Part shown: piece by piece, positions 3,639 to 46,308 of the stretch
Layout of the letters: every line of letters starts with the position of its first letter
Numbering within the stretch: position 1 is the first letter of the stretch
Assembly (NCBI GenBank): GCA_004322365.1
Contig: SCTS01000006.1
Location: 226,756-279,848 of the forward strand
Direction of reading: 5' to 3'
Length of the DNA stretch: 53,093 bases
Source: Patescibacteria group bacterium
GTDB lineage: Bacteria > Patescibacteriota > Minisyncoccia > Phycocordibacterales > Phycocordibacteraceae
Made by a program: the position numbers and the translations under genes
The notes under the pieces: model-generated
Databases searched by the model: none
Told to the model about the DNA's origin: nothing
What the model saw: the letters and a program-made list of their open reading frames with translations, nothing else

Positions 3639-3660
3639 AAGATTAGAGTTCCAAATTTAA

Positions 3661-5795: not shown

Positions 5796-5842
5796 AATGA
5801 TATACTGCCACCGGAGCTAAAATAGCCATTCAGAAAATGTTT

Positions 5843-12754: not shown

Positions 12755-12835
12755 GTGTCAGCTTATAGCTTTCAGCTTTTCCGATACACAGTGTAAGCCA
12801 TCCGCTGGAAGCTGGAAGCTGGAAGCTGGAAGCTT
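12755..12835. repeat. Heptad repeat pair: reverse-orientation copy plus tandem (GCTGGAA)x4
   Basis: GTGTCAGCTTATAGCTTTCAGCTTTT (12755-12780) and GCTGGAAGCTGGAAGCTGGAAGCTGGAAGCTT (12804-12835). Confidence 0.75.
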
Positions 12836-12842
12836 TGAATTA

Positions 12843-14096
12843 TCAATCCTGCGTACGCCAATCAACAATACGAAACCCGCTGACTGTTGTTGGAGTGAAT
12901 GGTGGTGGCAATTGTGCCAAGAGGGCATCGTGGACATCTGTCCGAATGCTATAGCCTGAGATAAAGGCACCAGACGATGTCCATTTTGTGTTTACGACAC
13001 CACGGGAAGCAAAAGTACCGAAGGTATTCAGCGTGGAACGAAGCACATATGACTGCAGGTCGGTAGGAACAGCGTGCGTACCCGAGGCATCATACCGATG
13101 TCGTCCAAAGTGACCAGTACCTGCCACAAAAACACCATTCAGCTGTAATACATCGGGTGATTGGAGTGAAATCAAAACTGATCGCTCAGCAATTGTCGTT
13201 AACCCATCGTCATATGCGTGCGCATAGGTAATGTTCCCGGTAATAACAATGTCAGGCTTACTACTGGGACTCGCCACATTTGCAGCGGCGAATGTAACTT
13301 TTCCAGATACGACCCCCTCAAGCCAAACAGAATCTTCTACAAACACAACAGGACACCCTGCGGGTATGGCGTAATTTGTGGTGGCGCCAACTGAAGCAAT
13401 TATTGTATTTTCTTCCTCCCAACCTTCATCATCTGAATATCCCATTATCTCAGTAACTGCGGTAACAGGGCTTGCATCAAATGTTCCGTTCGACTTGAAA
13501 ACAATTTTGTACCCATACGCTCCACCCGATGCAGGAGCGAGATATACACCCGATGCTTGCGCATATGTTTTTAAATTTGTGAGGGTGGCAGTAATCACTG
13601 ATGTGTCAGACTTTGCTGGACTTGTTGATGCCGCAAGCGTCTGTGTTCCATACTGAGCAATAAGTGTTTTTGTATGTGATGCACTTTCCAATGCCCATCC
13701 CGTTGAACGCACTGATGCGGATGTAAGTACTCCGCAAGAAGTTATACCTGAAATAGCGAGAGAAAAATTCCCGACAGTATTTCCGTTTTCTGGATCCAAA
13801 ACTGCATGTACATATGGCCCAGACAAACCAGTACCATCTTGTATATCAGTGGGAAATTCTGAAAAGTGCCATCGGTAGTACTCAAGCCCTGCTTCAGAAA
13901 TACTGAGTGCTTTGTCGGCCTCAGATCCAAAACGCTCTTTAGTTCTCTCAAGCGTCAACGCACTCATAAAATCAGACAACAGGAAGAAAAAAACAGCAGA
14001 AGCAATGAGTACAAAAACAGTCATAAACCCTCCCACACTTCTTACGCTCCCCCCTGAGAGCTGAAAGCTGGAACCTGAAAACTTCTTATTCCTCAT
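12843..14096 (-). CDS. PilX-like / large minor-pilin-like protein with an N-terminal TM segment
   Basis: 417 aa. A hydrophobic N-terminal helix is followed by ALTLERTKERF...SISEAGLEYYRW, which resembles a PilX N-domain. It is the last gene of the pil operon and makes an ATGA overlap with the upstream pilin. The start could instead be ATG 14024. Confidence 0.55.
   Translation of the reverse strand: MRNKKFSGSSFQLSGGSVRSVGGFMTVFVLIASAVFFFLLSDFMSALTLERTKERFGSEADKALSISEAGLEYYRWHFSEFPTDIQDGTGLSGPYVHAVLDPENGNTVGNFSLAISGITSCGVLTSASVRSTGWALESASHTKTLIAQYGTQTLAASTSPAKSDTSVITATLTNLKTYAQASGVYLAPASGGAYGYKIVFKSNGTFDASPVTAVTEIMGYSDDEGWEEENTIIASVGATTNYAIPAGCPVVFVEDSVWLEGVVSGKVTFAAANVASPSSKPDIVITGNITYAHAYDDGLTTIAERSVLISLQSPDVLQLNGVFVAGTGHFGRHRYDASGTHAVPTDLQSYVLRSTLNTFGTFASRGVVNTKWTSSGAFISGYSIRTDVHDALLAQLPPPFTPTTVSGFRIVDWRTQD
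14059..14080. repeat. Heptad repeat inside the annotated 5' end of the PilX-like ORF
   Basis: AGCTGAA AGCTGGA ACCTGAA A. Confidence 0.6.
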
Positions 14097-14689: not shown

Positions 14690-15128
14690 AGGTAACCGCA
14701 GACATGCTGTGCGAGAATCCGCGTATATTCCAAATGGCTTCGACTTTCATCACCTTATAATCGCCCGCCCCTGCGCCATTCGCTGGATCATCCTTATACG
14801 ACACAACCGTTCGAAGTGTGTATGGAATATTATTAACAAGTCGTGATTCAGTAGACACCAAAACTCCCGAAGGAGTGCCGCCAACGGTCCCAACACTCGC
14901 ATACGGAAGTCCTCTCGCATACTCGATAGTGCCTGCAATAAGCGCGCTCGCATTGGTGCGCGACGCGATGCTCTGCACGAGAGTAGCGGACGCAGCATAC
15001 GCACCAAAAAAACCTAAAAAGATTACAAGCATCAAAGATACGGCGACAACTACTTCAATGAGTGTCATTCCCCGAGAAGTTTTGTTCCTTCCTCTCTGAA
15101 AGCTGAAAGCTGAAAGCTGGCACCTCAT
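14676..15128 (-). CDS. Type IV pilin-like (pseudopilin) protein
   Basis: ...RNKTSRG|MTLIEVVVAVSLMLV with Glu at +5. 150 aa, with a 20-aa leader. Confidence 0.78.
   Translation of the reverse strand: MRCQLSAFSFQRGRNKTSRGMTLIEVVVAVSLMLVIFLGFFGAYAASATLVQSIASRTNASALIAGTIEYARGLPYASVGTVGGTPSGVLVSTESRLVNNIPYTLRTVVSYKDDPANGAGAGDYKVMKVEAIWNIRGFSHSMSAVTYVAP
15096..15126. repeat. Tandem heptads inside the pilin leader-peptide coding region
   Basis: CTGAAAG x3, then CTGGCACCTC. Translated on the minus strand this gives CQLSAFSFQ. Confidence 0.65.
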
Positions 15129-16343
15129 CTAGATATGACTCGACAGCGAGTAGATAGGAGCAATCATCGAAATCGCAAAAAATCCAACCATGGCGCCAAT
15201 GATAACCATGAGAAATGGTTCAATGACGGTAGAGAGATCTTTTGTTTTTCGCTCAACCGATTCTTCATAAAATTCAGCGGTTTCTTTAAGCAGACTTGAA
15301 AGACGTCCCGTTTCTTCACCAACAGCAACAATCTCAGCAACTAACGGCGGAAAAAGAAGAGTATGTTTTGCAAGAGATAGTGAGAGAGGCGACCCTTCGG
15401 TAAGACTCTTCTCAGCTTCAACAAAAACCTTTTTATACTGACTATTCTCTAACACATCGTGGGTAATTTTGACCGATAAAACCATATCCACTCCTGATGA
15501 AAACAACGAGGCGAGTGTGCGGGTCGCACGAGCAACATTAATTTCAACAATCAATCCACCGATGATAGGAATCTTTAGCAGAAACCAGTCCAAGAAGACT
15601 TTCCCCTTAGCTGATCGAATTGCCAAAAGTGATACAAATATAAAAAAACTAAATAATATCAACGCGATAAATGTATTGTGAATCAAAAAATCACTAGCAC
15701 TAATTATGAATTGAGTTGTGGGTGGAAGAGATGCATGTAATTCCCTAAAAGTTCCTGACAGTGTAGGGACAACATAAATCAACATCAGTATGCCAATACC
15801 AACCATTGCACTCAAAACAATGCTCGGGTAAATAAGTGCGCTTTTAATTTTTTTCTGTAAATTAGAGGCGCGCTCCATTTGAGTAGATGCAACTCGGAGC
15901 GACTCAGTTAATTTTCCTGATTCTTCTCCGGCACGCACCATAGAAACTAACAGGGAGGAAAACATTTTGGGAAACGCAGAAAGAGCAGTAGAGAAAGTCT
16001 CTCCTTTCTTTACACTGGTGATTATCTCAATCAAAACCTCTTGCAAGTGGACATTGCGTGTCTGTCGCTTTGCTACCTCAAGTGAACGGGAAATAGTTAA
16101 GCCTGCATCAAGCATGGTGGCAAGATTGCGTATGAGAATTACTTTTTCATCAAGTGAAACGGTGTGAAAAATTTCTAAAATAGAGTCGAGTGAAAATAAG
16201 TTGTTCGCGCGCACCTCTTTGAGTTCCAGCACTCGGTCACCTCGTTCACGTATGTCGTGGTGCACTGCAAAACGATCGACTCCGTCAATGATATCGGAAT
16301 ATGTTTCACCGGTCTGACTGATCGCAGTAACTTTGAATTTCAC
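15129..16343 (-). CDS. pilC: Type IV pilus / type II secretion platform protein (PilC/GspF family)
   Basis: 404 aa. Two T2SSF-like halves, each with TM segments. Adjacent to the pilB-like ATPase. Confidence 0.88.
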   Translation of the reverse strand: MKFKVTAISQTGETYSDIIDGVDRFAVHHDIRERGDRVLELKEVRANNLFSLDSILEIFHTVSLDEKVILIRNLATMLDAGLTISRSLEVAKRQTRNVHLQEVLIEIITSVKKGETFSTALSAFPKMFSSLLVSMVRAGEESGKLTESLRVASTQMERASNLQKKIKSALIYPSIVLSAMVGIGILMLIYVVPTLSGTFRELHASLPPTTQFIISASDFLIHNTFIALILFSFFIFVSLLAIRSAKGKVFLDWFLLKIPIIGGLIVEINVARATRTLASLFSSGVDMVLSVKITHDVLENSQYKKVFVEAEKSLTEGSPLSLSLAKHTLLFPPLVAEIVAVGEETGRLSSLLKETAEFYEESVERKTKDLSTVIEPFLMVIIGAMVGFFAISMIAPIYSLSSHI

Positions 16344-18845: not shown

Positions 18846-18866
18846 GGAAAATTGACACTTTCTTAT

Positions 18867-18901
18867 CCCTAAACCCTAGCCACTAAACGCTAACCCCTAA
18901 T
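18867..18901 (+). repeat. CTAAAC-type heptad leader repeat 5' of nusA
   Basis: CCCTAAA CCCTAGC CACTAAA CGCTAAC CCCTAAT TAAAT ATG. Confidence 0.7.
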
Positions 18902-18906: not shown

Positions 18907-20115
18907 ATGTTCGACCTAAAAACAATAAACCTCGTCATCGATCAGCTCTCTGAAGAGCGTGGTATCCCTCGTGACAAAATGATAGAAGCAATCGAAGGTG
19001 CCGTCGCAACCGCATATAAGCGTGAGTACGGTAAACGCGACCAAATCGTTCGTGCGCATTTTGATATTTCAACGGGCGGAGTTGATTTCTACCAAGTAAA
19101 AATGGTTGTCGCGCCTGAAGAAGTGCGTATGGATGGCGACGAGTCTCCAGTGGAAGAAGGCGACGACCGCCCACACTACAATGAAGAGCGATTCCTTTTC
19201 CTTGAAGATGCTAAGAGAATTAAAAGAGATGTCGCTGTAGGTGATGAGCTCATATTCCCTCTAGAAAAGAAGACCGACTTCGGACGGATTGCCGCACAAA
19301 CAGCAAAGCAGGTCATTATGCAGAAAATCCGTGAAGCAGAACGAGCTTCAGTTGTTGAAGAATACGGTGGAAAAGAAGGCGATATCGTTCACGGTATCGT
19401 GCAACGCATTGAGCGTGGAAACCTCTATGTCGACTTGGGTCGTGCAACAGGCATCATGCCGTACCACGAACAAATCCCAGGAGAGCGTTACCGTGCGGGT
19501 GAACGCGTTCGCGCATATCTCTTCTCAGTTGAAGAGGGAGTACGCGGAGTATTCTTGCGTTTGTCCCGTGCGCATCCAAAATTCTTGGAAAAACTTTTTG
19601 AACTTGAAGTTCCTGAAATCGCAAGCGGTGCCGTCGTCATAAAAGCAATTGCCCGTGAAGCTGGCGGCCGCTCAAAGGTTGCGGTGCATGCAACAGATTC
19701 TCGTATCGACCCAGTAGGTGCACTTGTAGGTCAGCGAGGTGTTCGTGTTTCAACCGTCATGAGTGAACTTGGAGGTGAACGCATCGACATCATTGAGTGG
19801 TCAGAAGAAATAAAACAATTTATTGAAGATGCACTTTCCCCTGCTCAAATTCTTTCAATCGAACTCGATGAAGAAACACACCGCGCAGTTGCTGAAGTCT
19901 CTGAAGATCAGCAATCTCTTGCTATTGGTCGTGGTGGTCAAAATGTACGCCTCGCCGCAAAACTAACCGGTTGGTCAATCGATATCCGCCCAGTAGGAGG
20001 TGCCGTAGCTGCTGAAACTGATGAAAACGTAGCAAAGGCGGAGGAAGAAACTGAAACCAACGAAGAAAAATCTGATACTGTAGAAGAAGCCGGCGACGCA
20101 GAAGTCAAAAGCTAA
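18907..20115 (+). CDS. nusA: Transcription termination/antitermination factor NusA
   Basis: 402 aa. N-terminal domain, S1-like region (GDIVHGIVQRIERGNLYVDLG), two KH regions (GQRGVRV, GRGGQNVRLA) and an acidic tail. Confidence 0.94.
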   Translation: MFDLKTINLVIDQLSEERGIPRDKMIEAIEGAVATAYKREYGKRDQIVRAHFDISTGGVDFYQVKMVVAPEEVRMDGDESPVEEGDDRPHYNEERFLFLEDAKRIKRDVAVGDELIFPLEKKTDFGRIAAQTAKQVIMQKIREAERASVVEEYGGKEGDIVHGIVQRIERGNLYVDLGRATGIMPYHEQIPGERYRAGERVRAYLFSVEEGVRGVFLRLSRAHPKFLEKLFELEVPEIASGAVVIKAIAREAGGRSKVAVHATDSRIDPVGALVGQRGVRVSTVMSELGGERIDIIEWSEEIKQFIEDALSPAQILSIELDEETHRAVAEVSEDQQSLAIGRGGQNVRLAAKLTGWSIDIRPVGGAVAAETDENVAKAEEETETNEEKSDTVEEAGDAEVKS

Positions 20116-20145
20116 ACCCTTTACACTAACCCCTAAACGCTAACG
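20111..20145 (+). repeat. CTAAAC-type heptad leader repeat 5' of ppa, starting at the nusA stop codon
   Basis: GCTAAAC CCTTTAC ACTAACC CCTAAAC GCTAACG AAT ATG. Confidence 0.7.
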
Positions 20146-26878: not shown

Positions 26879-28027
26879 ATGCCCCATTTCTTACGTACGT
26901 TCTTGTTTGCATTTGCAGGACTCGTGTTCGCCATAGTTGCTGGTTTATCGACCTCTCCTGATCATGTTTCGATTTCACAAGAAAATACAGCAGTGAGTCC
27001 AGAAAACACCCCAACTACATTTGGAACGACAACAATCACCGAGGTTATTGCCGAGGCAACAAAAGGAATAGAAAGTGGTGTAAGTAAGATTACTCCGACA
27101 AAAAAAACGACACCGGTTACCGCTCCAAAAACCACCACTGCAGTTATCACACCACCTATACCTGTAAAAGAGCCCGTAAATCAAATAGCGCTCAATAATA
27201 AGGTGCGCGAGGCCATTGTTAATATCATCTGTGTAACAAAAAACGCAGGGCCTTTAAATTCTATTTCTGCCAGCGGTGTCATTATCGATCCAAGGGGAAC
27301 CATCATTACAAACTCCCATGTTGGGCAGTATCTCCTCCTTAAAGATTACCCAAGTGCTGGCTTTATAGAATGCACTATTCGAACAGGGAGTCCCGCGCAA
27401 CCAAAATACACAGCAGAGCTTCTTTTCCTTCCTCCTTCGTGGATTGCTGACAACGCAAAAAAAATAAACCAATCAAAACCAACAGGAAACGGCGAGCACG
27501 ATTATGCATTCTTACGCATTACAGGAACAGTGCACCCAAACATCACACTGCCCACAGCATTTTCATTTCTCTCGGTATCTATTACTCCACCTGAGGAAGG
27601 ACAGAGCCTAATCGCCGCAGGCTACCCTGCAGGATTTTTAGGAGGTATTACGGTACAAAAAGACCTCTATGCCAGCTCGGCAATAACGCATGTCGGAGAA
27701 TTATTTACTTTCAAAGCAGACACTATTGATCTTTTCTCTTTGGGGGGCTCCATCGTTGCCCAGCAAGGGGCATCCGGAGGCGCTGCAGTGAACGACATTG
27801 GCTCTCTCATAGGTATTATCGTAACGGCAACTGATGCGCCCGACACTGCTTCCCGCGATCTACGTGCAATTACAACCTCCTATATCATTCGAGACTTCAA
27901 AAAAGAATCTGGTGTAGGTATTGATACCTACCTTAATGGTGATACTGCAGCGGCAGCGCAAACTTTTGCCAACGCTGTAGCTCCAGCGCTCACTGCACAG
28001 CTCATACAAGCAATAGAAAACCGATAG
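26879..28027 (+). CDS. Membrane-anchored trypsin-like (S1-family) serine protease
   Basis: N-terminal TM, Thr/Pro linker, and a His/Asp/Ser triad context (ITNSHV, HDYAFLRI, GASGGA). Start set at ATG 26879. Confidence 0.75.
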   Translation: MPHFLRTFLFAFAGLVFAIVAGLSTSPDHVSISQENTAVSPENTPTTFGTTTITEVIAEATKGIESGVSKITPTKKTTPVTAPKTTTAVITPPIPVKEPVNQIALNNKVREAIVNIICVTKNAGPLNSISASGVIIDPRGTIITNSHVGQYLLLKDYPSAGFIECTIRTGSPAQPKYTAELLFLPPSWIADNAKKINQSKPTGNGEHDYAFLRITGTVHPNITLPTAFSFLSVSITPPEEGQSLIAAGYPAGFLGGITVQKDLYASSAITHVGELFTFKADTIDLFSLGGSIVAQQGASGGAAVNDIGSLIGIIVTATDAPDTASRDLRAITTSYIIRDFKKESGVGIDTYLNGDTAAAAQTFANAVAPALTAQLIQAIENR

Positions 28028-28095
28028 CCATTTAAAAATCCTCAAGACACAAAGCCCTAAGACCACACTTGACTTGGTCCCTCCACTCCTGATAG

Positions 28096-28131
28096 AGTAT
28101 GTATCACTGTAGTACTACAGTGATACATACT
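28096..28131. repeat. Palindrome copy 1 (30-bp core 28099-28128, extended to 36 bp), abutting the regulator ATG
   Basis: AGT ATGTATCACTGTAGT|ACTACAGTGATACAT ACT. The core is identical to copies at 28760 and 30569. Confidence 0.95.
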
Positions 28132-28458
28132 ATGAATAGAGCGAGTACAAAAAATAAAGTAGGCGGTAAAGAGGTACTTGGTTCAAAACAAAACCTAGAA
28201 GCTTTATATACTGCCTTTCTTTCACTAAAAAACCGCGAGGAGTGCTCTGCATTCATGCGTGACCTTTGCACCAAGGCAGAGCTGGAAGCGTTTGCTGAGC
28301 GTTTTGCCATTGCCCGCCTCCTTACCAAAGATGTTTCGTACCGCAACGCCGCAGATGAGACTGGCGCATCAACCACCACTGTTAGTCGTGTCTCCCATTG
28401 GCTTCACCATGGACGGGGCGGCTATAGCACCATCATTTCTCGATTGCATAAAAAATAA
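28132..28458 (+). CDS. TrpR-like (YerC/YecD-type) helix-turn-helix regulator
   Basis: 108 aa. LEALYTAFLSLKNREECSAFMRDLCTKAELEAFAERFAIARLL...SYRNAADETGASTTTVSRVSHWLHHGRGGY matches the YerC/YecD pattern as I remember it. The ORF-track start at 28099 is only the palindrome being translated. Confidence 0.8.
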   Translation: MNRASTKNKVGGKEVLGSKQNLEALYTAFLSLKNREECSAFMRDLCTKAELEAFAERFAIARLLTKDVSYRNAADETGASTTTVSRVSHWLHHGRGGYSTIISRLHKK

Positions 28459-28501
28459 TCTGACCCAAATCAGAAGCAAGAGAAGAAAAAATGAACTGCA
28501 T

Positions 28502-28523
28502 ACCGCCCCACAGGCGGTTTTTT
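28502..28523 (+). terminator. Intrinsic terminator after the regulator gene
   Basis: ACCGCC-CCACA-GGCGGT followed by TTTTT. Confidence 0.6.
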
Positions 28524-28759
28524 AGTATATAGAAAATAAAAACATCATGAAAAACAAAGAAACAAAAAATGTAGGTGAAGCAGATGCTCGTTCCTCAAAA
28601 GATAAAAACTATCAGTTCAAATGCAGAATGGGGTCGTTCGCTAAGGAAGACGCGGAAACACAGAAGCTGTTAGAGAGTGGAGTAGACCCTTGGGATCTAC
28701 TCCGTGAAGGATAGTGAGCGACTGAATCCTCATCGTTAAACACAAAAATGTTTTCCGCT

Positions 28760-28789
28760 ATGTATCACTGTAGTACTACAGTGATACAT
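28760..28789. repeat. Palindrome copy 2, 67 nt upstream of hisG
   Basis: ATGTATCACTGTAGTACTACAGTGATACAT, a perfect copy. Confidence 0.95.
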
Positions 28790-28856
28790 AAGTAAAGAAG
28801 GAAATGAAGAGAGGAAGTAGAGGAGTAAAAAAAATAAAAAATCTAACAATAAAAAC

Positions 28857-29708
28857 ATGAACGAAACACTAAAAAGACCGCAGCCAGATGTTTCACGCAT
28901 AGCACGAGTGATTCCTGGCTCAAGAGCCGACAGACTCAACTGGCAACGTGAAGAAGAAGATCGTGCTCGCTACACACCAAGAATTCTTCCACCTGAACCC
29001 GAGGCAATTCTTGAGTACTACCAACAAAGACAAGCAGGGCGTGAACGAGCTAAAAAAATAATCACCGAGATGGCTCAATCGGGAAACGAAGTACGCGTCG
29101 CTATACAAAAAAATGGACGGCTCTCAGCTATTGCATGGGGACTCCTTGAGACATGTCTAGAAGCAGCTGGAGTCCCAGTCACTGAAGAAGAGCGCCAACT
29201 ACAACGGAAAAATAGAACGCTCGTATACGAAATACCAAAACTACCTAACGTAAAAATAGTATCTGCACGATCAGGCGATATTGCGTGGTATATCGAGAGC
29301 GGCAACGCAGATATTGGAATCATTGGCGAAGACCAGGTACTTGAGAAAAATTCTAAGGTCGAGATTGTGGCACGCCTGGGCTTAGGAGAATGTTCACTCG
29401 CAATTGCCGTGCCGGAGGGCTCGCAAATTACGACACTCAAAGATCTGAATGGTAAAACCATTGCCACATCCTTGCCGTCAATTCTGAAGCAGTATCTGAA
29501 GGAAAAACAGGTGAAACCAAAAAACATTATCGAGCTTGGTGGCTCCGTCGAAGCAGCAACAGCGCTCGGCTTTGCAGATGCCGTCTGCGACATCACGGAA
29601 ACGGGGAGTTCGTTCGTGGCAAATGGGCTTACCGAACTTGAAACAGTTCGTGATTTTGAGGCAGTTGTCATAACTGCCAAAAAACCAAAAGTGAAATTAA
29701 AACGCTAA
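28857..29708 (+). CDS. hisG: ATP phosphoribosyltransferase, short form, with a 71-codon N-terminal extension (alternative start ATG 29070)
   Basis: The core VRVAIQKNGRL...DIGIIGED...TGSSFVANGL is HisG-like and lacks a C-terminal regulatory domain. The reading frame stays open 71 codons upstream of the canonical-looking start MAQSGNEVRVAIQK. Confidence 0.85.
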   Translation: MNETLKRPQPDVSRIARVIPGSRADRLNWQREEEDRARYTPRILPPEPEAILEYYQQRQAGRERAKKIITEMAQSGNEVRVAIQKNGRLSAIAWGLLETCLEAAGVPVTEEERQLQRKNRTLVYEIPKLPNVKIVSARSGDIAWYIESGNADIGIIGEDQVLEKNSKVEIVARLGLGECSLAIAVPEGSQITTLKDLNGKTIATSLPSILKQYLKEKQVKPKNIIELGGSVEAATALGFADAVCDITETGSSFVANGLTELETVRDFEAVVITAKKPKVKLKR

Positions 29709-29712
29709 AAAT

Positions 29713-30402
29713 ATGGAATCCAAAGAACTTGTTAGAGAAATGAACTGGGAGAAAGTGGGGGGTCTCGTGCCAGCAATTATTCAAGATACCGAAAACGGTT
29801 TGGTGCTCATGCTTGGATATATGAACGAAGAAGCACTGAGACGAACTTTGGACACTGGATTTGTGTGGTTTTACAGCCGTACCAGAAAGACTCTGTGGAA
29901 GAAGGGTGAAACGTCAGGCAACGTGCTTTCCGTCGAAGATATACGAGTAGACTGCGACAACGACACCGTCCTCGTAAAAGCCCGCCCCACTGGACCTGTG
30001 TGCCACACGGGCGATACAACCTGCTTCAAAGAAGAAGCAACAAGAAACGAGCTCTCTCTACTTTTCGGAGTACTTGAGCAACGTAAACGAGATTTACCAA
30101 AGGGCTCATATACCACAAAACTCTTTGAAGCAGGGCTCGACAGAATTGCACTCAAGGTTGCCGAAGAGTCACTTGAGGTAATCCAAGCCGCCACCAAAGA
30201 AACACGAGAGAGGACAATAGAAGAGACCACTGATCTTCTCTATCACCTTTTCGTTCTCTTGATTGAGAAAAACGTGACATTAAGAGATGTAGAAAAAGAA
30301 CTTCAAAATCGAGCCGGAAGAAAGCCTCGGGAAGAAAAAATTGCGATTCCTATCGCTCCCGATCCTCTACCTGCACGTATTCCAAACACTTCCGCTAAAT
30401 AA
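29713..30402 (+). CDS. hisIE: Bifunctional phosphoribosyl-AMP cyclohydrolase / phosphoribosyl-ATP pyrophosphatase
   Basis: HisI part: GLVPAIIQD...WFYSRTRKTLWKKGETSGN...DCDNDTVL...CHTG. HisE part: SYTTKLFEAGLDRIALKVAEE...DLLYHLFVLL. Confidence 0.9.
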   Translation: MESKELVREMNWEKVGGLVPAIIQDTENGLVLMLGYMNEEALRRTLDTGFVWFYSRTRKTLWKKGETSGNVLSVEDIRVDCDNDTVLVKARPTGPVCHTGDTTCFKEEATRNELSLLFGVLEQRKRDLPKGSYTTKLFEAGLDRIALKVAEESLEVIQAATKETRERTIEETTDLLYHLFVLLIEKNVTLRDVEKELQNRAGRKPREEKIAIPIAPDPLPARIPNTSAK

Positions 30403-30565
30403 AAATAACCAAACTAATCATGCAAGAAAAGAAAACAGCTCCGTGGCCATACACCAACGATGGACGAGCATTCGTCGGAGAAGGCCGTGGTGCACCTGAA
30501 GCAAAAATAAAACCAAAAACGAAAGAAAAGAATACACCAAGAAGAAAAATCTGAGAGAAAAGTGT

Positions 30566-30601
30566 CCAATGTATCACTGTAGTACTACAGTGATACATTG
30601 G
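30566..30601. repeat. Palindrome copy 3 (core 30569-30598, extended to 36 bp) between the his cassette and the guaA 3' end
   Basis: CCA ATGTATCACTGTAGTACTACAGTGATACAT TGG. Confidence 0.95.
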
Positions 30602-30640
30602 GTTTTCGGAAAGGGGAAAATAAAAATGGCGCCTTAAAAA

Positions 30641-32170
30641 CTACTCGTACTCAATAGTTGCAGGAGGTTTTTGGGTGACATCGTACAAAACACGATTCAC
30701 ACCACGCACCTTACCTACAATGGCACTTGAAATTTTTTCAAGGAGTTCGTGCGGCATTTTGTGCCAGTCCGCACTCATGCCATCAATAGAGTCAACTGCA
30801 CGAAGTGCAATAATGTACTCGTAGGTACGAGCATCCCCCATCACGCCCACAACTTTGAGCGGTAACAGTGCTGCGAATGATTGCCAAATCTTTTCGTACT
30901 CACCTGCCTCTTTAAGCTCTTCCGTAAATACAGCGTCTGCTTCTCGCAAGATCACGAGGCGTTCAGGTGTAATTTCACCAACAATACGAATCGCAAGTCC
31001 TGGGCCTGGAAATGGATGGCGCCAGACTAGCGCATGCGGTAACCCTAACTCTTCGCCAACACGACGCACTTCATCTTTATAGAGATCCTTCACTGGTTCA
31101 ACTATTTTCAATTTCATTCGCTCTGGCAATGTGAGATTGTGATGACTCTTTATTTTAGATGCATGTTTCGATGTTGAAGCAGACTCAACACGATCAGGAT
31201 AAATAGTCCCCTGTGCAAGATACGCAATGGGAAATGCCTTTAATTCTTCAGTCAATGCTTTTTCAAAAACCTCTACAAACGAGTGGCCAATAATTTTGCG
31301 TTTTTCTTCTGGCTCAGTAACTCCTACCAAGCGTGACAAAAACATTTCGCTCGCATCAATAACATGGAGATTTTTAAATCCTTGTGAGCGCAGAGATTTA
31401 GAAACGCTTTCCACTTCTCCCTTACGGAGGAGTCCTGTGTCAACAAACACTGCATGTAAGCGATTCCCTATCGCTTTATAGAGAAGGGTGGCGGCAACGA
31501 GCGAATCTACACCGCCAGAAATTCCAACAACAACATGACCATCACCAATTTCTTTTTTTAAATCTGCAATAATATTTTTCGCAACAGACTTCATATCCCA
31601 ATCTTTCTTAGCTTTGCAGATGCCAAAAATAAAATTCGAGATTATTTTTTTACCGTGAATTGTATGGGTTACTTCCGGATGAAATTGAATACCAAAGAAC
31701 CGGCGTTTCTCGTCAGCAAATCCAGCGTGTGCGCAGGTTTTAGTAGAAGCAGTCACTACAAAACCTTTTGGCAATTTTGTTGCTTGATCTCCGTGCGAAA
31801 ACCACACCGTTTCTTTAACCGTGAGACCTTTGAGGATGCCTGTTTTCTTTTTTATTGAAACAACTTCTTTTCCAAACTCTTTATTTTCTTTATTTTGTAC
31901 CTTTCCGCCTAGCAGATGCGCCATAAGCTGGTGTCCATAACAAATACCAAGAACAGGGATACCGAGCTCAAATACTCGTTTGTCTGGCAGAGGACCATTT
32001 TCCAGCACTGAATGAGGGCTTCCTGAGAGAATGATGCCAACGGGGTTCAAAGCTTGAATCTCCTCAATGCTCGCATCTCCATGCAAAATCTCGGCCTTCA
32101 CGCCGAGATCACGGACCCTTCTTGCAATAAGGTGAGCAAACTGTCCTCCAAAATTGAGAACTACAATCAT
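30641..32170 (-). CDS. guaA: GMP synthase (glutamine-hydrolysing)
   Basis: 509 aa. GATase domain (GICYGHQL), ATP-PPase SGGVDS and a C-terminal PPATIEYE. Confidence 0.95.
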   Translation of the reverse strand: MIVVLNFGGQFAHLIARRVRDLGVKAEILHGDASIEEIQALNPVGIILSGSPHSVLENGPLPDKRVFELGIPVLGICYGHQLMAHLLGGKVQNKENKEFGKEVVSIKKKTGILKGLTVKETVWFSHGDQATKLPKGFVVTASTKTCAHAGFADEKRRFFGIQFHPEVTHTIHGKKIISNFIFGICKAKKDWDMKSVAKNIIADLKKEIGDGHVVVGISGGVDSLVAATLLYKAIGNRLHAVFVDTGLLRKGEVESVSKSLRSQGFKNLHVIDASEMFLSRLVGVTEPEEKRKIIGHSFVEVFEKALTEELKAFPIAYLAQGTIYPDRVESASTSKHASKIKSHHNLTLPERMKLKIVEPVKDLYKDEVRRVGEELGLPHALVWRHPFPGPGLAIRIVGEITPERLVILREADAVFTEELKEAGEYEKIWQSFAALLPLKVVGVMGDARTYEYIIALRAVDSIDGMSADWHKMPHELLEKISSAIVGKVRGVNRVLYDVTQKPPATIEYE

Positions 32171-32213
32171 GCTTTATTTTACCTCGGCTCCGAACTTTTT
32201 TCAAATCCATACA

Positions 32214-32236
32214 AAATCCCGCCAATGGCGGGATTT
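32214..32236 (-). terminator. Intrinsic terminator after the small ORF
   Basis: AAATCCCGCC-AAT-GGCGGGATTT, with a T-run on the minus strand. Confidence 0.6.
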
Positions 32237-32263
32237 ATGTGAGAGAAAATATAGTCTTTCTAT

Positions 32264-32404
32264 CTAAAAACCAAAAAAATCTTTCGAGCTGTCTGCGTAC
32301 TTCTGACCATACTGCGCAGCATTGCTTGCGTTTTGTCTCGAGTCAATGCCCTCCATAATCTTATTCCACTCTTCTGGGGAATATTTACTTAATCCTTCAG
32401 CCAT
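32264..32404 (-). CDS. Possible 46-aa small protein
   Basis: MAEGLSKYSPEEWNKIMEGIDSRQNASNAAQYGQKYADSSKDFFGF. Followed by a terminator hairpin. Below the ORF-track threshold. Confidence 0.35.
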   Translation of the reverse strand: MAEGLSKYSPEEWNKIMEGIDSRQNASNAAQYGQKYADSSKDFFGF

Positions 32405-32605
32405 AATATTTTGTTATTACAAAATCTTATAATAATTCCAAGTAGGTTCGACTGAACCTACTCTTTAATACTATATAGTAATTGATACTATTTGTCAAGC
32501 ATTAACAAGACTATTCGTTAGTAATGTAATTTCAATAACACACACCAAAAAACATCCCTACGTAAGCATTGTTGGCGAAATTTTAGTGAAAAAGGTCACA
32601 ATTTC

Positions 32606-33841
32606 TTAGATTCCAACATTAACGCGGACCCTTCCTTCTCCCCCAACATTTACACTCCCTGTGTGTACCTTTGACTCAATATCTATCTGACTACTGTCTT
32701 CAACCTGTCTTGATTCTGAATTACCCTCAGTATTCTGACGATTTTCAACAGATTTGTTTTTCTTTTCGTCATCAAGAGCTTTCTCGTTCGGATGAAAAAT
32801 GTTTATTCGAACCTTTTTTGACACATTCAGATATACTGACAATCTTTTCACTGCCACTAATGCATTCTGGTATGACTGGAATGCGCTGGTGAAATCCTTT
32901 TTTTCGAAAAATGCATCACCTTTTACCAAAAGCTCTGACGCAGTCTTCACTTGCGCTTGTGCATTTAGGTTTGCGGATGCTTCAAGATTCCCCGAAACGC
33001 GCGCCAATAGAACAGCAGAGTCTTTAACTGCAGTTTTTGCCACCCCTCCCATTGCAAGAGCGGCTCTTTCTTTAGTATCTACTTCCTCTATGTTTTTTGC
33101 TGCTATTGCACTAGATGCTGAAGTGTCTTCGGAAGTATGTGCTCTCACATACACGCCACTCTCAGCCTTCATACGAAGCTCTCCTATCGTGTGCGATTTC
33201 GCACGAATAAGTTGCACGAGATCATCTGCGTCACCTTGTGTATCAATCTGAACGAGAAGCGCTTCATGAGCAGAGAGATTGCTTTCAAAATTTGACGCGA
33301 GACCGATGGCAATGGATGCATTTTTCTTTTCTAAGTCTTTCGTTCGCGCTACCGCTGAGTCAGCGTGTTTTGCAAAGTCGTCTGAAAGTTTTGCTCGTAT
33401 GTGAGCCGTCAACTTATTATCAACCGCTAGATTCGTAGCCTCGACAAGACGGCGCTCTGCAAATTTTGCTTCAAGTGTAGCTTTAGATTCAGCAGAGACT
33501 GCGAGTGTGCTCACCACCTTTTCATTGACTCCCACTTTTACTGGGTAGAGTAAATCTCCAGGCATAGCACCCTCTGCTGCATATGACGCAGTTCCCGAAA
33601 GAAGGAGCCCTAGAATTATTGCAATGGGAATATATTTTCTTTTGGAATGCATAAAAAATAAACCCGGGAATAAACTATCTTTCGCCTCCATATAGTTCTT
33701 ACCCTGAGCCGAATCTACAGTCCGTAGTGGCTTCATCGCCATGTATTCAGTCAACCCACTCTCAAGCTTTTCTTGCTCCAATGCCGAGAGCGATGTGGCA
33801 TCACCAACTTTTTTTATGTAATCAATGAGATTAATTTTCAT
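32606..33841 (-). CDS. Putative anti-sigma factor: single TM plus a DUF5667-like extracytoplasmic helical domain
   Basis: The ATG is 7 nt after the sigma stop. It has a cytoplasmic N-domain, a TM (IPIAIILGLLLSGTASYA), then GDLLYPVKVGVNEKV and long helical repeats. Start set at 33841. Confidence 0.6.
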   Translation of the reverse strand: MKINLIDYIKKVGDATSLSALEQEKLESGLTEYMAMKPLRTVDSAQGKNYMEAKDSLFPGLFFMHSKRKYIPIAIILGLLLSGTASYAAEGAMPGDLLYPVKVGVNEKVVSTLAVSAESKATLEAKFAERRLVEATNLAVDNKLTAHIRAKLSDDFAKHADSAVARTKDLEKKNASIAIGLASNFESNLSAHEALLVQIDTQGDADDLVQLIRAKSHTIGELRMKAESGVYVRAHTSEDTSASSAIAAKNIEEVDTKERAALAMGGVAKTAVKDSAVLLARVSGNLEASANLNAQAQVKTASELLVKGDAFFEKKDFTSAFQSYQNALVAVKRLSVYLNVSKKVRINIFHPNEKALDDEKKNKSVENRQNTEGNSESRQVEDSSQIDIESKVHTGSVNVGGEGRVRVNVGI

Positions 33842-33848
33842 ATGCAAA

Positions 33849-34370
33849 TTATGAGAGCATAGTGCGAAGTTTGATAATGGCACGATGAAGTCTGACTGAT
33901 ACTGTATTTTCTGTTTCACCCGTCATCTGTGAAATTTCCTTTGGAGAAAATCCGTCTATGTAGCGCATCGTTACGACTGAACAATACTCTGGTGAAAGAT
34001 TCGTGAGCTGTTCCCGCACCTTCACTACAAGCGCTTCTTCATCAATATGCTCTTCCGTTTCCCATACACCACCCTCAGCCATGTCTGCGTCTATATGCGC
34101 TCGGCGTTCATCACTCATACTATCAAGCGACTCTGCTTTTTTGCGACGGTACTCGTCAATGATGAGGTTGTGCATAATGCGGTACAAAAATCCCTTAAAC
34201 TGCTTTACTTCTCCACCGCCACGAAGATAATCCCATGCCTTGATAAAAGTATCTTGCGTAAGATCGAGAGCCTTCTCTCTAGAGCTCACCCTAAAGAAGG
34301 CGTGTCGAAAAAGTCCGTCATAGTGTTCACGGAATACCGCCAGAAAAGCCTCTTCAGTACTTCCCTTCAT
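33849..34370 (-). CDS. ECF-type sigma-70 family RNA polymerase sigma factor
   Basis: 173 aa. Region 2 (LDLTQDTFIKAWDYL, FLYRIMHNLIIDEYRR) and region 4 (YIDGFSPKEISQMTGETENTVSVRLHRA). Confidence 0.9.
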   Translation of the reverse strand: MKGSTEEAFLAVFREHYDGLFRHAFFRVSSREKALDLTQDTFIKAWDYLRGGGEVKQFKGFLYRIMHNLIIDEYRRKKAESLDSMSDERRAHIDADMAEGGVWETEEHIDEEALVVKVREQLTNLSPEYCSVVTMRYIDGFSPKEISQMTGETENTVSVRLHRAIIKLRTMLS

Positions 34371-34605
34371 GTTCTCCTATTGTAAGACGGAAAAGAAGGG
34401 TCACACTTACTGCCGACGAAAGCGAGGAGAACGGGAAAGTCCTCTTTTACATTCTCGAGCTAAGGATGGCAGAAAAACTCTTGAGGTTTCCGTAGAGAGT
34501 TTTACAAGTCGGCGAGCGAGAAAGAACATGGGAGTTTTATTTTCATGTTTTTCGAGCGAAGACGGGGCAAAGATTCGGAAGCACTCATCCGAATCTTTGC
34601 TATTT

Positions 34606-35982
34606 TTAAAGTGACAGTCTTTTATTCCAATTTTCAGCAACAGCTTTCGCTTTTTTCTCCGCAATGCCTGTATATAAGGATGGATTTTTAAGAATATTTT
34701 TCTGCGCTTCAGTCATCCTTAAAAGATACGGCGCCATTTCAGCATCGCTGAGCGCCACCTCCTCTAGCCCTTTTCCTTCCTGTCCTGCTGTAAGTGTAAG
34801 ATTTCGAACTTTTTCATGTGCATCAGGGTGACCTAAAGACGCAAGAATAATATAAAGAGGTTCCGCAGCCACTGACCCACGGCCGAGAGCAAGATTCTTT
34901 TCAAGATTCACTGTGTCTACTTTCAACTTCGACATTGTTTTAGTTAAACGCTTCACCGCAGACACCGTATATGCGATTGATTCACCGTAGGTGCGAGATG
35001 AAGCCGAATTCGTGAGGTCTCGTTGATGCTCGCTAATTTGATCGAGAAAAACAGTGACGGCGCGAGGCATTACTATCTTCCAAATGCTTTTTACATTTTC
35101 AAAATTTATAGGGTTTCTCTTTTGTGGCATCGTTGAAGATCCAACTTGAGAAGCTTCAAATTCCTCCCCTATCTCCCCTATTTCTGTACGCTGTAGTGCA
35201 CGCATATCATCAGAAAGATTTGCAAGTACACCGAGAGTAATAGAAACCTCTGCCATCAAACGCGCCATTGGTTCTGGCTGTGTTACTTGCGTTGATTGCT
35301 CTGATGCTTGAAGACCGAGCCCTGCCAATACATCATTCTCAAAACCTTCAGGGTCAGCAAAGAAAAGTGACGACGCATTGTACGCGCCAACCGCACCTGA
35401 AAACTTCCCTCGTAGTTCTTTTGCAAGGGCGTCGAGCGCTTCGATACAAACACCAAGACGACTCACATAGCCTGATAGTGCAAAGCCAAATGTTATAGGA
35501 ACCGCATGCTGTCCATGTGTACGCCCAACCTGCACCGTACCAGCTTCGCGAAGTGTTAAATCAATGAGTACTTTTTCAAGATCTTTCAGTGCAGGAACGA
35601 GAACTTTCTGCGTTGCATCACGAAATCGTGCAGCATTTGCGGTATCAATAATGTCGTACGAAGTCGCCGTCATGTGTACAAATGGTTTTGCACTGTCAGA
35701 AACTTTTGAACGAATAACATTCACAAGCGCCCTGATGTCATGCTTGATGCGCTCCTCTTCTGCGTACACTTCCTCAGAAGTAACAGATTTGCATGCGGTT
35801 TCTACTTCCTGAACAACCGCAGTCGGACACATCTTGTGTTTTTCGAGAGCCTTCAAAAGAGCAATTTCTGCTCGCATTTTGTAGTCTAAAAATCCCCTAT
35901 CAGAAAAATAAGGAAGGAGTGACTCATCCCAGTATCGGTAATCAATTGGGGAAAATGAATCAAAGGAGGTGGTTGGTCTCAT
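34606..35982 (-). CDS. purB: Adenylosuccinate lyase
   Basis: 458 aa. Fumarate-lyase signature GSSTMPQKRNP and TGRTHGQHA. Confidence 0.92.
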   Translation of the reverse strand: MRPTTSFDSFSPIDYRYWDESLLPYFSDRGFLDYKMRAEIALLKALEKHKMCPTAVVQEVETACKSVTSEEVYAEEERIKHDIRALVNVIRSKVSDSAKPFVHMTATSYDIIDTANAARFRDATQKVLVPALKDLEKVLIDLTLREAGTVQVGRTHGQHAVPITFGFALSGYVSRLGVCIEALDALAKELRGKFSGAVGAYNASSLFFADPEGFENDVLAGLGLQASEQSTQVTQPEPMARLMAEVSITLGVLANLSDDMRALQRTEIGEIGEEFEASQVGSSTMPQKRNPINFENVKSIWKIVMPRAVTVFLDQISEHQRDLTNSASSRTYGESIAYTVSAVKRLTKTMSKLKVDTVNLEKNLALGRGSVAAEPLYIILASLGHPDAHEKVRNLTLTAGQEGKGLEEVALSDAEMAPYLLRMTEAQKNILKNPSLYTGIAEKKAKAVAENWNKRLSL

Positions 35983-39182: not shown

Positions 39183-39208
39183 ATGTGCTAAACCCGGGTT
39201 TAGCACAT
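39183..39208. repeat. 26-bp perfect palindrome (copy A)
   Basis: ATGTGCTAAACCC|GGGTTTAGCACAT. Its 24-bp core is identical to 39474-39497. Confidence 0.9.
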
Positions 39209-39440: not shown

Positions 39441-39466
39441 ATGTGCAACCTCCGGAGGTTGCACAT
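39441..39466. repeat. 26-bp perfect palindrome with arms related to copies A/A'
   Basis: ATGTGCAACCTCC|GGAGGTTGCACAT. Confidence 0.9.
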
Positions 39467-39473: not shown

Positions 39474-39497
39474 TGTGCTAAACCCGGGTTTAGCACA
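39474..39497. repeat. 24-bp perfect palindrome (copy A'), ending 1 nt before the xth stop codon
   Basis: TGTGCTAAACCC|GGGTTTAGCACA. Confidence 0.9.
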
Positions 39498-40309: not shown

Positions 40310-41212
40310 TTACTTCACTCTTTTCTTTCCATGAAACGCCTTATGGACATCGAGGAGGTGTTTGTCAGTAACATGGGTGTAAATCTGGGTAGTGGCAATA
40401 TTTGCATGACCTAAAAGGGCTTGAACGCTACGCAAATCAGCCCCATTTTCCAAAAGATCAGTTGCAAATGAGTGCCGTATGACATGCGGAGTGACTTTTT
40501 TTGTAATACCCGCCTTAATGGCGCAACTCTTTATAATGTTCTCTATAGAACGAGGCGTAAGGCGTGAAGGAATTTTTTTTCCTGTACTGTGTCGAACAAA
40601 CAAAGCTTCCGCCATATCTTGTCGTGCTTTTAAATATGCAGACACGCTGGTCTTTGCGGTAGGGGAGAGAAATACTACACGCACCTTATCGCCCTTCCCA
40701 CGAACAGAAAGTTCGTCACGGGAAAGGTCTAAATCGGTATCAAGGGCACACAATTCGGAAACACGAAGTCCTGTTGAAAAAAACATTTCCATAATTGCTC
40801 TGTCTCGAAGCTCTTTTAATCCATTACCAACCGGAGCTTTCATTAACCGCTCTAACTCGGTTGCCGTAATGAGGTCGAGCGAACGCTCAGGAACCTTTGC
40901 AAGTTCAATGTGCTCAGGTGGAAGCGCTTTAATACCTCGTTTGGCTAAAAACTTTAGAAATGCACGGAGTGCAATGAGATAGTAGTTCTGAGTCTTGCGT
41001 TTCATCATGTTGCCATTCGTACCTGGCTGGCGATTGAGCCACAAGCGAAATTCACGAAGTTTTTCTTCACTTACATCAGCAACATCACTCGCTTTTGAAA
41101 ATTCGAGGAAGCGAGAAAGGTAGTGGTCGTAATTTTCAACAGTTTTTATGCTCCGACCTTTAGTGATCTCAATATATTCAAGAAATTCTCGTTTCAGGTT
41201 CTGAATATCCAT
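40310..41212 (-). CDS. Tyrosine recombinase XerC/XerD-like
   Basis: C-terminal catalytic region TPHVIRHSFATDLLENGADLRSVQALLGHANIATTQIYTHV. Start set at ATG 41212. Confidence 0.87.
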   Translation of the reverse strand: MDIQNLKREFLEYIEITKGRSIKTVENYDHYLSRFLEFSKASDVADVSEEKLREFRLWLNRQPGTNGNMMKRKTQNYYLIALRAFLKFLAKRGIKALPPEHIELAKVPERSLDLITATELERLMKAPVGNGLKELRDRAIMEMFFSTGLRVSELCALDTDLDLSRDELSVRGKGDKVRVVFLSPTAKTSVSAYLKARQDMAEALFVRHSTGKKIPSRLTPRSIENIIKSCAIKAGITKKVTPHVIRHSFATDLLENGADLRSVQALLGHANIATTQIYTHVTDKHLLDVHKAFHGKKRVK

Positions 41213-41246
41213 ATATAAAGTATATCGTGAACTTCGCACAATATTC

Positions 41247-41549: not shown

Positions 41550-41942
41550 TTTGTCCTCACTTATTTAGTGAATTTGTTTTTTGAGTTTGCTACTGAAGTA
41601 GTATAGTTACTACTTAGGAAAGTAGTTTTCATACTTAATCCATATGGGAGAAGCAGGAACATTTCGTGAAGGCAGTGGATTACTCAGGAGCCCTGGCCGT
41701 AATGAACGAGCTCAAGAGGCGCGAGACGCCATAACCAGGCTCATCAACGGACCTAGAGATCCTCGTACCAAAGATGGACGACGACGGACCTTGGGAACAG
41801 CCTGAATCTTTTTTACTCGACAGGAAGTAGTATGAAGAGACGGCTACATCCGTTCTTCTTGTAAACTACTCTGACCCTAGACCGTCTATACTCAAGAGGT
41901 CGATATTTTTAAATTAATTATTTATTTTCATTAAGCTAGTTC

Positions 41943-41967
41943 CTAGAAGCTAGCACCTAAAACCTAA
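41943..41967 (+). repeat. Heptad leader repeat 5' of the NYN-domain gene
   Basis: CTAGAAGCTAGCACCTAAAACCTAA, then TTTAT ATG. Confidence 0.55.
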
Positions 41968-41972
41968 TTTAT

Positions 41973-42599: not shown

Positions 42600-42637
42600 G
42601 GAAGCTTTCAGGTTCCAGCTGTCAGCTTCCAGCTTTT
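42600..42637 (-). repeat. Heptad repeat (reverse orientation) just 3' of the NYN gene stop
   Basis: GGAAGCTTTCAGGTTCCAGCTGTCAGCTTCCAGCTTTT. Confidence 0.65.
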
Positions 42638-42777
42638 TCTAAAAAGCGAACATCAAAGAAAAACGTCTTTCACAAAAGGCGTTTTTTGCTATACTCAACA
42701 TATTAAAAGCGAGGTTCTCAGATAGGCAGGACGGCTCGCCGAACCTGAAATCTGCGAATCTCATAACAAAGAGATAC

Positions 42778-46231: not shown

Positions 46232-46273
46232 AAAGGTTCAAGGGGCTAGGCTTTAGCTTCTGGGGAGAGGTTT

Positions 46274-46308
46274 GAAGCTGACAGCTGGAACCTGACACCT
46301 ATGACCTG
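46274..46308 (+). repeat. Heptad leader repeat 5' of the dksA-like gene
   Basis: GAAGCTG ACAGCTG GAACCTG ACACCTA TGACCTG. Confidence 0.65.

Follow-up and report, generated by a model that had tools for sequence, protein, structure and literature searches.

Palindromic candidate operators of a HisR-like repressor beside hisG and hisIE in a Patescibacteria genome

The hisR locus and its three palindromes

The sequence analysed here, referred to as the window, is a stretch of 53,093 nucleotides (GenBank assembly GCA_004322365.1, contig SCTS01000006.1, positions 226,756 to 279,848) from a tiny groundwater member of the Patescibacteria, or candidate phyla radiation (CPR). It contains a gene for a small TrpR-family regulator, referred to as hisR, with hisG and hisIE directly downstream and two small open reading frames (ORFs). 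The 30-bp perfect palindrome ATGTATCACTGTAGTACTACAGTGATACAT is found exactly three times, at 28099-28128 (copy 1), 28760-28789 (copy 2) and 30569-30598 (copy 3), and these copies are considered here as candidate operators of the regulator. The features of the locus are listed in Table 1. The surrounding genes in the window are typical housekeeping genes.

Table 1. Features of the hisR locus. Positions are those of the window, and gaps are counted from the end of the 30-mer
Feature	Position	Strand	Remarks
Sigma-70-type promoter of the regulator gene	28069-28098	+	Promoter scan; -35 TTGACT 28069-28074, 18-nt spacer, -10 TAGAGT 28093-28098
Copy 1, 36-bp palindrome, proposed autoregulatory operator	28096-28131		Search and conservation; invariant core 28100-28127; AGT/ACT flanks; 3 nt to ATG at 28132
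Regulator, 108-aa HisR-like (YerC/YecD, TrpR-family) helix-turn-helix protein	28132-28458	+	PF01371, TIGR02531
Intrinsic terminator 3' of the regulator gene	28502-28524	+	Terminator scan; ACCGCC-loop-GGCGGT, then T6
55-aa small ORF	28547-28714	+	Conserved protein, ends ...VDPWDLLREG
Copy 2, 32-bp palindrome, proposed second operator or roadblock for hisG-hisIE	28759-28790		67 nt upstream of hisG (ATG at 28857)
hisG, ATP phosphoribosyltransferase, short form	28857-29708	+	TIGR00070
hisIE, bifunctional phosphoribosyl-AMP cyclohydrolase/phosphoribosyl-ATP (PR-ATP) diphosphatase	29713-30402	+	NF002747, 259.6 bits
44-aa small ORF, last gene of the his unit	30420-30554	+	Conserved protein, PWPY..AF[VI]GEGRGAPEAKIKPK
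Copy 3, 36-bp palindrome in 86-nt spacer	30566-30601		Between 44-aa ORF and convergent guaA; CCA/TGG flanks, then AAAAG/TTTTC flanks; 42 nt to guaA stop at 30641
guaA (GMP synthase), convergent neighbour	30641-32170	-	Context; outside the regulated unit
guaA promoter	32176-32204	-	TTGAAA-17-TAAAAT, 5 nt before ATG

No further match to the 30-mer was found in the window when up to 3 mismatches were allowed, and none of 100 shuffled sequences gave any match. A window search for isolated or diverged half-sites (14 nt, up to 2 mismatches) recovered only the six arms of the three copies. The palindrome set is a real feature and not a product of chance. The remaining long palindromes in the window are bidirectional terminators made up of an A-run, a GC stem and a T-run, and are unlike ATGTATCACTGTAGTACTACAGTGATACAT. 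A preliminary description of this DNA had reported three base-identical 30-mers, unique in the window and with the spacings to the regulator ATG, hisG and the guaA stop codon that are given in Table 1. All of this proved correct, as did the extension of copies 1 and 3 to 36 bp, but the 32-bp extension of copy 2 had been missed.

The regulator matches both Trp_repressor (PF01371, E 1.6e-23) and the YerC/YecD family TIGR02531 (84.1 bits, cut-off 42.2), which bears out its earlier assignment as a TrpR-like protein of the YerC/YecD type. Its score against the TrpR equivalog, TIGR01321, is 24.2 bits, below the cut-off of 67.25, and among solved structures it comes nearest to 3frw, 3kor and 3g1c (E. 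eligens HisR; E 1e-17 to 2e-20). All of the regulator homologues found are from Patescibacteria (Paceibacterota); the loci of relatives are designated by L numbers. An alternative start of the regulator at position 28099, where an ATG would add an N-terminal extension (MYHCSTTVIHT...), was rejected, as L003, L007 and L008 do not have that ATG.

YerC is the TrpR-family protein HisR, a histidine-dependent repressor of his biosynthesis and transport genes, with regulons described by Ashniev et al. 2022 in Firmicutes, Proteobacteria, Actinobacteria and Synergistetes (PMC9413887). The proposal cited in the preliminary description, in which YerC-type proteins (HisR) repress his genes, is real. HisR operators are 20-bp, lineage-specific palindromes, histidine-dependent binding has been shown for R. 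gnavus HisR, in the only test published, and hisR is autoregulated in about half of the genomes; Patescibacteria were not in that survey (PMC9413887).

Both hisG and hisIE had been called correctly. The hisG product scores 157 bits against TIGR00070 over residues 79-272, and its N-terminal extension of ~78 aa is conserved in L017, L020 and L021. None of hisZ, hisA, hisF, hisH, hisB, hisC or hisD was found within the 53-kb window. Among the relatives, a full his operon follows hisR in L010 and L030, hisG occurs alone in L007, and L003 and L004 have no his genes. The terminator directly after hisR is kept in all relatives, including those that do not have copy 2.

The protein encoded by the 55-aa ORF is conserved in L002, L020 and L018, and the ORF is lacking in L001, L006 and L017. 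The product of the 44-aa ORF (41-47 aa in relatives) is likewise conserved, in L001, L002, L017 and L020. Pfam and NCBIfam searches found no family match for either. Because they are conserved as proteins in relatives, we take both to be small genes, and they are likely to encode real small proteins rather than leader peptides. Neither contains His, as had been noted previously, and Rfam searches (the whole window at the gathering score, and 27900-30800 at E <1) returned only tRNAs and chance microRNA matches. Classical his leader-peptide attenuation, already doubted in the preliminary description, is therefore unlikely, and a His leader, T-box or riboswitch was rejected on the same grounds.

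Copy 1, the hisR promoter and the regulator

The loci of 13 regulator homologues, 48-99% identical to the window protein, were compared. In every locus, the regulator gene is preceded by a sigma-70-type promoter (CTTGAC, 17-18 nt, TAnnnT) with a spacer of variable sequence, and the copy 1 site, which starts 1 nt past the -10 hexamer, leaves a gap of 0-5 nt to the regulator ATG. CTTGAC and TAnnnT at the same spacing, with the -10 box abutted by the site, were seen in 12 related loci. Across 10 genomes with regulators 66-99% identical, column identity at copy 1 is 99% in the 28-bp core, TGTATCACTGTAGTACTACAGTGATACA, versus 60-71% in the promoter spacer and flanks. For comparison, divergence between the window and the sister genome amounts to 8-13% in hisG, hisIE and intergenic DNA.

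Across the relatives, the predicted operator sequence changes together with the regulator protein. In the core clade, where the regulators are 76-99% identical and carry the recognition helix SRVSHWLHHG, the site is TGTATCACTGTAGTACTACAGTGATACA. In the L032 site (regulator 66% identical) the core has been altered symmetrically (T>C / A>G), and L007 (65%, helix SRVSHWYHHG) has the site TGTATCACTGTGTTAACACAGCGATACA. The L008 site (67%, SRVAHWLNHG) is an imperfect palindrome in which the GTA/TAC blocks are kept and the stem is broken in three places. More distant regulators have other motifs at the same position after the -10 box, namely a Firmicutes-type TTTA/TAAA motif in L010 (48%, SRVSKCIEYG) and L031 (52%, SRVSHWLHHG) and another, different motif in L030 (53%, SRVSHWLHHG). 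The L031 contig is 2 kb long.

The predicted transcription start lies 6-8 nt past the -10 box, inside the left arm of copy 1. As the left extension of the palindrome is the -10 box itself, the full hairpin cannot form in the regulator RNA, and the leader hairpin that includes the partly transcribed left arm is weak (about -8 kcal/mol, z -1.2). Occlusion of the regulator start codon by an RNA hairpin, which the preliminary description had left open, is thus unlikely. The autoregulation through copy 1 that it had proposed is strongly backed by the comparative data, namely the conservation of the core and the fixed spacing to the -10 box, and the identification of copy 1 as an autoregulatory operator, at which binding is predicted, is strongly supported. 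Since the site abuts the -10 box and fills the ~26-nt leader to the ATG, a repressor bound there would block RNA polymerase.

The core reads TGTA TCAC TGTA GTAC TACA GTGA TACA. Each strand contains TCACT-n3-GTACT, i.e. NNACT half-sites 8 bp apart, and the half-site and spacing reported for TrpR are GNACT and 8 bp. Another reading of the core is as a pair of 20-bp TGTA...TACA sites that overlap, the second shifted by 8 bp. From the 8-bp spacing and the two overlapping sites we infer that binding, if it occurs as predicted, would involve two dimers in tandem, as described for TrpR. The 28-bp operator region of L010 likewise shows an 8-bp periodicity. The resemblance of the palindrome centre to TrpR half-sites noted in the preliminary description holds for the NNACT elements and their spacing, but not for their register, which is off by 1 bp per side.

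The locus shares with the published HisR systems the YerC/YecD subfamily, the position of hisR first beside his genes (as in Proteobacteria), a palindromic operator immediately upstream of hisR, and a regulon of hisR, his genes and a transporter. By homology with these systems, the effector would be histidine. However, the phylum is different (Patescibacteria/Paceibacterota), the invariant core is 28 bp rather than 20 bp, and the consensus (TGTATCACTGTAGT|ACTACAGTGATACA) and the recognition helix (SRVSHWLHHG versus SRVNRSLNYG) also differ. Here the linked his genes are limited to hisG and hisIE, the putative transporter is a predicted seven-transmembrane (7-TM) protein and not YuiF or HisXYZ, copies are found at 3' ends, and perfect palindromy reaches 48 bp. 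Resemblances to Escherichia coli TrpR and its trp, aroH and trpR operators include the fold, autoregulation with an operator that overlaps the promoter, NNACT-type half-sites at a spacing that allows tandem dimers, and the TGTA...TACA ends. The window regulator is, however, not a TrpR equivalog, its half-site register differs, and its effector is presumably not tryptophan.

Copies 2 and 3 and copies in other genomes

Copy 2 lies between the hisR terminator (and the 55-aa ORF in some lineages) and hisG. It is present at the same place in L002, L006 (44 bp), L017, L018 and L020, making six genomes with the window, and was acquired in a subclade. The hisG gene has a -10-like hexamer, AACAAT, 6-8 nt before the ATG (loosely TAnnnT elsewhere), and looks leaderless. 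A TTGAAC 19 nt upstream was considered as part of a copy 2/hisG promoter and rejected, as it occurs in only some lineages and would need TATGTA as the -10 box. We infer that copy 2 serves either as an operator in an unusually distal position or as a roadblock that stops read-through, and in either case it would subject hisG, hisIE and the small ORF to the same repressor as hisR. Control of hisG-hisIE via copy 2 is plausible.

Copy 3 was found only in the window and its sister genome. It is absent from L001, L017 and L020, and in L017 and L020 the spacer itself is missing, with the two stop codons 1 nt apart. The copy 3 hairpin has an energy of -25 to -27 kcal/mol, with 4 U in a stretch of 5 nt on either strand, but only on the minus (guaA) strand was it scored as terminator-like. 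Copies 1 and 2 have no U-tract, and a canonical terminator was rejected for both; in relatives, the tracts that flank the extra copies are of the wrong polarity for termination. The genes on either side converge on copy 3, which therefore has no promoter to control. It probably represents a hairpin terminator, a repressor roadblock that insulates the convergent units, or a tolerated dispersed copy. We envisage a recent copy in a newly acquired spacer, where the hairpin and/or a bound repressor would part the two units, or which is simply tolerated.

The view in the preliminary description that all three palindromes are operators, which would be kept in the orthologous cassettes of relatives, therefore holds to differing extents. 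Copy 1 is kept and stands as an operator, copy 2 is kept in a subclade and may act in his control, and copy 3 is absent from the relatives named above and is not explained by promoter control.

A different palindrome core, GACATCGTATGTC, takes the place of copy 3 in L001 (8108-8136), between the small ORF and guaA. It was also found in L019 (976-1000), ~20 nt upstream of a his-type palindrome, and may represent a second hairpin family of this lineage.

A 20-mer from the core was used to scan one genome per species (185,579 genomes) and metagenomes. It was recovered in 10 stretches from 6 species genomes, all of them Paceibacterota metagenome-assembled genomes that carry the regulator, and in 8 metagenome stretches, with 1-5 copies per genome overall. 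With so few copies, confined to a regulator-bearing clade, the palindrome is not a dispersed repeat of the repetitive extragenic palindromic (REP) or miniature inverted-repeat transposable element (MITE) type, and the operator idea stands on this point. The copies do resemble REP elements, bacterial interspersed mosaic elements (BIMEs) and foldback MITEs in being short intergenic palindromes, often between convergent genes, that seem to be related by copying. However, REP elements and MITEs are present in tens to hundreds of copies, whereas here one of the few copies is always part of a promoter, the core is invariant across genera, and no association with a REP-associated tyrosine transposase (RAYT) or other transposase was found. 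A DNA uptake sequence was rejected by the copy number. Searches of plasmids, phages and viral contigs for the core gave no match, and a mobile-element origin was rejected for this reason.

The extra copies fall into two classes. Those upstream of genes precede hisG (six genomes), a 7-TM gene (four genomes) and a small gene in L029. Those at convergent 3' ends or after genes are copy 3 of the window and copies in L024 (between convergent livF-like and TrmB-like genes), L016 (between msrA and a convergent Zincin-PurO operon) and L019. The extra copies differ among closely related genomes, and the remnants in their flanks (YCTCNCT-A) are common to them and similar to the -10 region beside copy 1.

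In the four genomes with the 7-TM gene the order is orthologous, with a gene resembling inosine monophosphate dehydrogenase (IMPDH) or GMP reductase, the site (with a single mismatch in one case) and the 7-TM gene. The 7-TM protein has 202 aa and was modelled with a predicted local distance difference test (pLDDT) score of 93.7. Pfam and NCBIfam searches of it found nothing, and a weak fold match of the model to cystinosin, SWEET and the KDEL receptor (TM-score ~0.5, E 0.03) suggests a PQ-loop/SWEET-like transporter. The same operator upstream of this gene would make up a HisR-type regulon, and the combination of hisR, his genes and a putative transporter fits, by analogy, the logic of the published HisR regulons. 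In L035, a separate 20-bp perfect palindrome, GTATACGATATATCGTATAC, was noted at 2832-2851, between the terminator of the IMPDH-like gene and the HisR-type site upstream of the transporter gene.

Beyond the core, palindromy is perfect over 32-48 bp, with flanks that differ from site to site. Even orthologous sites differ, with CCCTCCCT/AGGGAGGG in L013 versus TTTTCTCT/AGAGAAAA in L015. Flank positions pair in 61% of cells, compared with 48 +/- 2.5% when shuffled (none of 500 shuffles reached 61%) and 36-49% in slid controls, and the flank covariation score is 0.41 versus 0.20. At copy 1, the paired flank consists of the untranscribed -10 box and the bases just before the ATG, and for this reason the pressure for flank pairing acts at the DNA level and not on RNA. 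Symmetric double substitutions were found in copy 3 of L002 and in L032. Replication template switching is known to homogenise and expand the arms of inverted repeats, and such expansion has been reported around the sites of dimeric transcription factors (PMC8794818, PMC13100816). Homogenised arms, symmetric double substitutions and outward growth with site-specific flanks are common to those cases and to the palindromes described here, where the process is deduced from comparative patterns only. The lengthening of the arms is most likely a mutational by-product of template switching. Pre-existing terminator stems were rejected as a source of the flanks, which have 5' T-tracts and 3' A-tracts.

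Interpretation and alternatives

We consider that the palindromes are probably operators of the adjacent HisR-type repressor, in a CPR bacterium. The family of the regulator is clear, and the placement, conservation and copy number of the palindromes and the covariation of their flanks are direct observations. Several observations weigh against this reading. The core fits neither of the published 20-bp HisR consensuses (cacTTTAn6TAAAgtg and TGTAnTArnnnnyTnTTACA; PMC9413887), and has in common with them only the TGTA..TACA ends and CACT/NNACT. L001 and L007 keep hisG without copy 2, and a promoter scan found no recognisable promoter abutting copy 2 or hisG. Where a site lies upstream of a gene, its centre is 52-85 nt from a leaderless-looking start (TAnnnT-N6-ATG), further upstream than a classical repressor site, and about half of the extra copies are between convergent 3' ends (copy 3, L024, L016 and L019), with no promoter there to control. 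Unlinked copies in the sister genome, L024 and L025, share the same symmetric G/C variant, and because this variant is common to both, the extra copies seem to be related by copying and not by selection site by site. Finally, only hisG and hisIE are local, and control of histidine biosynthesis may mislabel the physiology.

Two related readings are possible, though even jointly they are not favoured. In one, the operator would be self-propagating, a minimal foldback repeat that is copied to new intergenic sites and lengthens to as much as 48 bp; if true, a reduced CPR genome would have its small regulon rewired by the spread of the operator and its growth by template switching. In the other, the regulon may govern a purine-interconversion shunt from ATP via PR-ATP to 5-aminoimidazole-4-carboxamide ribonucleotide (AICAR), and the effector would then not be histidine. 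This second reading is based on hisG and hisIE standing alone amid guaA, purB, IMPDH/GMP-reductase-like, purN and purO neighbours. In the window, guaA and purB are neighbours of the locus (30641-35982), and in relatives the operator is near the IMPDH/GMP-reductase-like gene, purN and a PurO-like gene; this purine context hints at a role in purine interconversion.

It is unlikely that the palindromes are mainly RNA or DNA hairpins that function independently of the regulator, as terminators, insulators, 3'-end stabilisers or REP-like elements. The hairpins would be very stable if transcribed (-20 to -27 kcal/mol, z -5 to -8), copy 3 has A-tract/U-tract flanks and a terminator-like score, several of the extra copies are between convergent genes or after 3' ends, and both the flank covariation and the symmetric double substitutions in L002 copy 3 and L032 preserve pairing. 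However, the core is invariant, and not merely complementary, across genomes that have diverged by ~10% or more, and L008 keeps the sequence blocks yet breaks the stem. At copy 1 only the weak leader hairpin of about -8 kcal/mol is left in the regulator RNA, and most extra copies, with a 5' T-tract and a 3' A-tract, have the wrong polarity for termination on either strand. The genuine terminators here are of the A-run/GC-stem/T-run type, and the palindrome is limited to 1-5 copies per genome.

More doubtful still is the possibility that copy 3, and perhaps copy 2, are non-functional foldback repeats that were pasted in and are tolerated, perhaps titrating the repressor. Copy 3 is lineage-specific and its spacer is missing in relatives, the extra copies vary between close genomes, the rare G/C variant is at two unlinked loci, the YCTCNCT-A flank remnants are shared, and convergent spacers are where neutral insertions survive. 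Against this, no transposase, target-site duplication or other signature of transposition was found, and copy 3 has survived the ~10% divergence between the window and the sister genome. The position of copy 2 is kept in at least six genomes and that of the transporter site in four, which argues for selection at these sites.

It is very improbable that the palindromes serve in site-specific recombination (as attC-, dif- or IMEX-like sites) and bound exchangeable cassettes. In favour of this, identical sites frame hisR and hisG-hisIE, the genes 3' of hisR vary (hisG-hisIE, hisG alone, methyltransferase and HalD-like genes, an AstE/AspA-like gene, or nothing), and a XerC/D-like recombinase is 10 kb away beside a further pair of identical palindromes. 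Against it, the his cassette of L001 and L007 carries copy 1 only, and the alternative cassettes of L003, L008 and L004 have no flanking copies. In no relative has the DNA between copies been inverted or deleted, and the genes keep their order and orientation. The site is fully symmetric, with no asymmetric centre, and recombination would leave the fixed -10 spacing unexplained. Integron attC and Xer dif cassette boundaries were rejected by this comparison with relatives, and the mobile or recombining module raised in the preliminary description does not survive it, since the cassette occurs without flanking copies and its variation does not coincide with the palindromes.

Further features of the neighbourhood were noted. 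The slot 3' of the regulator is variable in content, with a methyltransferase and a HalD-like 2-oxoglutarate oxygenase in L003 (5371-6959), a 227-aa protein and an AstE/AspA-like hydrolase in L008 (6366-7755), and short ORFs only in L004 (6316-7085), and the synteny around it is kept (clpP-rny-hup-protease ... guaA-DUF5667-extracytoplasmic function (ECF) sigma-purB). A second palindrome set is present in the 394-nt spacer of the convergent genes cca and xth, beside the XerC/D-like recombinase gene (40310-41239). It comprises TGTGCTAAACCCGGGTTTAGCACA, found twice and 290 bp apart (39183-39208 and 39441-39466), and ATGTGCAACCTCCGGAGGTTGCACAT (39474-39497), and it starts with ATGTG and ends with CACAT, as does the his palindrome. 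Two intergenic repeat families, 7-nt periodic runs of AGCTGRA and C/A-rich tracts of the CTAAAC(C/G)CTAAC type, are at 3650-3693, 12799-12835, 14048-14085, 15090-15132, 42601-42650 and 46253-46300, with further repeats at 5838-5870, 18862-18894, 20112-20144 and 41936-41968. The CTAAAC(C/G)CTAAC-type tracts are mostly just upstream of start codons. Both families are also beside palindrome sites in L016 and L019, and they may be leader or translation-related elements. In several genes, guaA among them, only 5-6 nt separate a good -10 hexamer from the ATG and a Shine-Dalgarno sequence is lacking, and TATACT-N6-ATG and TATAAT-N6-ATG were seen in relatives (L013 ~5908-5935 and L029 ~1000-1019), which suggests that leaderless mRNAs are frequent in this lineage.

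The HisR switch itself is known. What is new here is the phylum, the 28-bp core, the truncated his set beside purine genes, the putative transporter target and the apparent spreading and lengthening of the operators. Transcriptional regulation in the Patescibacteria is almost unexplored, and this locus offers a complete and testable unit of promoter, operator and repressor, with a conserved sigma-70-like promoter, a 28-bp site and a small predicted regulon of hisR, hisG-hisIE and the 7-TM transporter gene. With it, the HisR family reaches a new phylum, and the longer operator suggests tandem dimer binding. That the histidine pathway is kept only as far as its third step (hisG and the bifunctional hisIE), beside purine genes and in an expected auxotroph, brings the purpose of these enzymes into question. 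A transcription-factor site that duplicates to new loci and grows into long palindromes, as these copies appear to do, would bear on the evolution of both regulons and inverted repeats.

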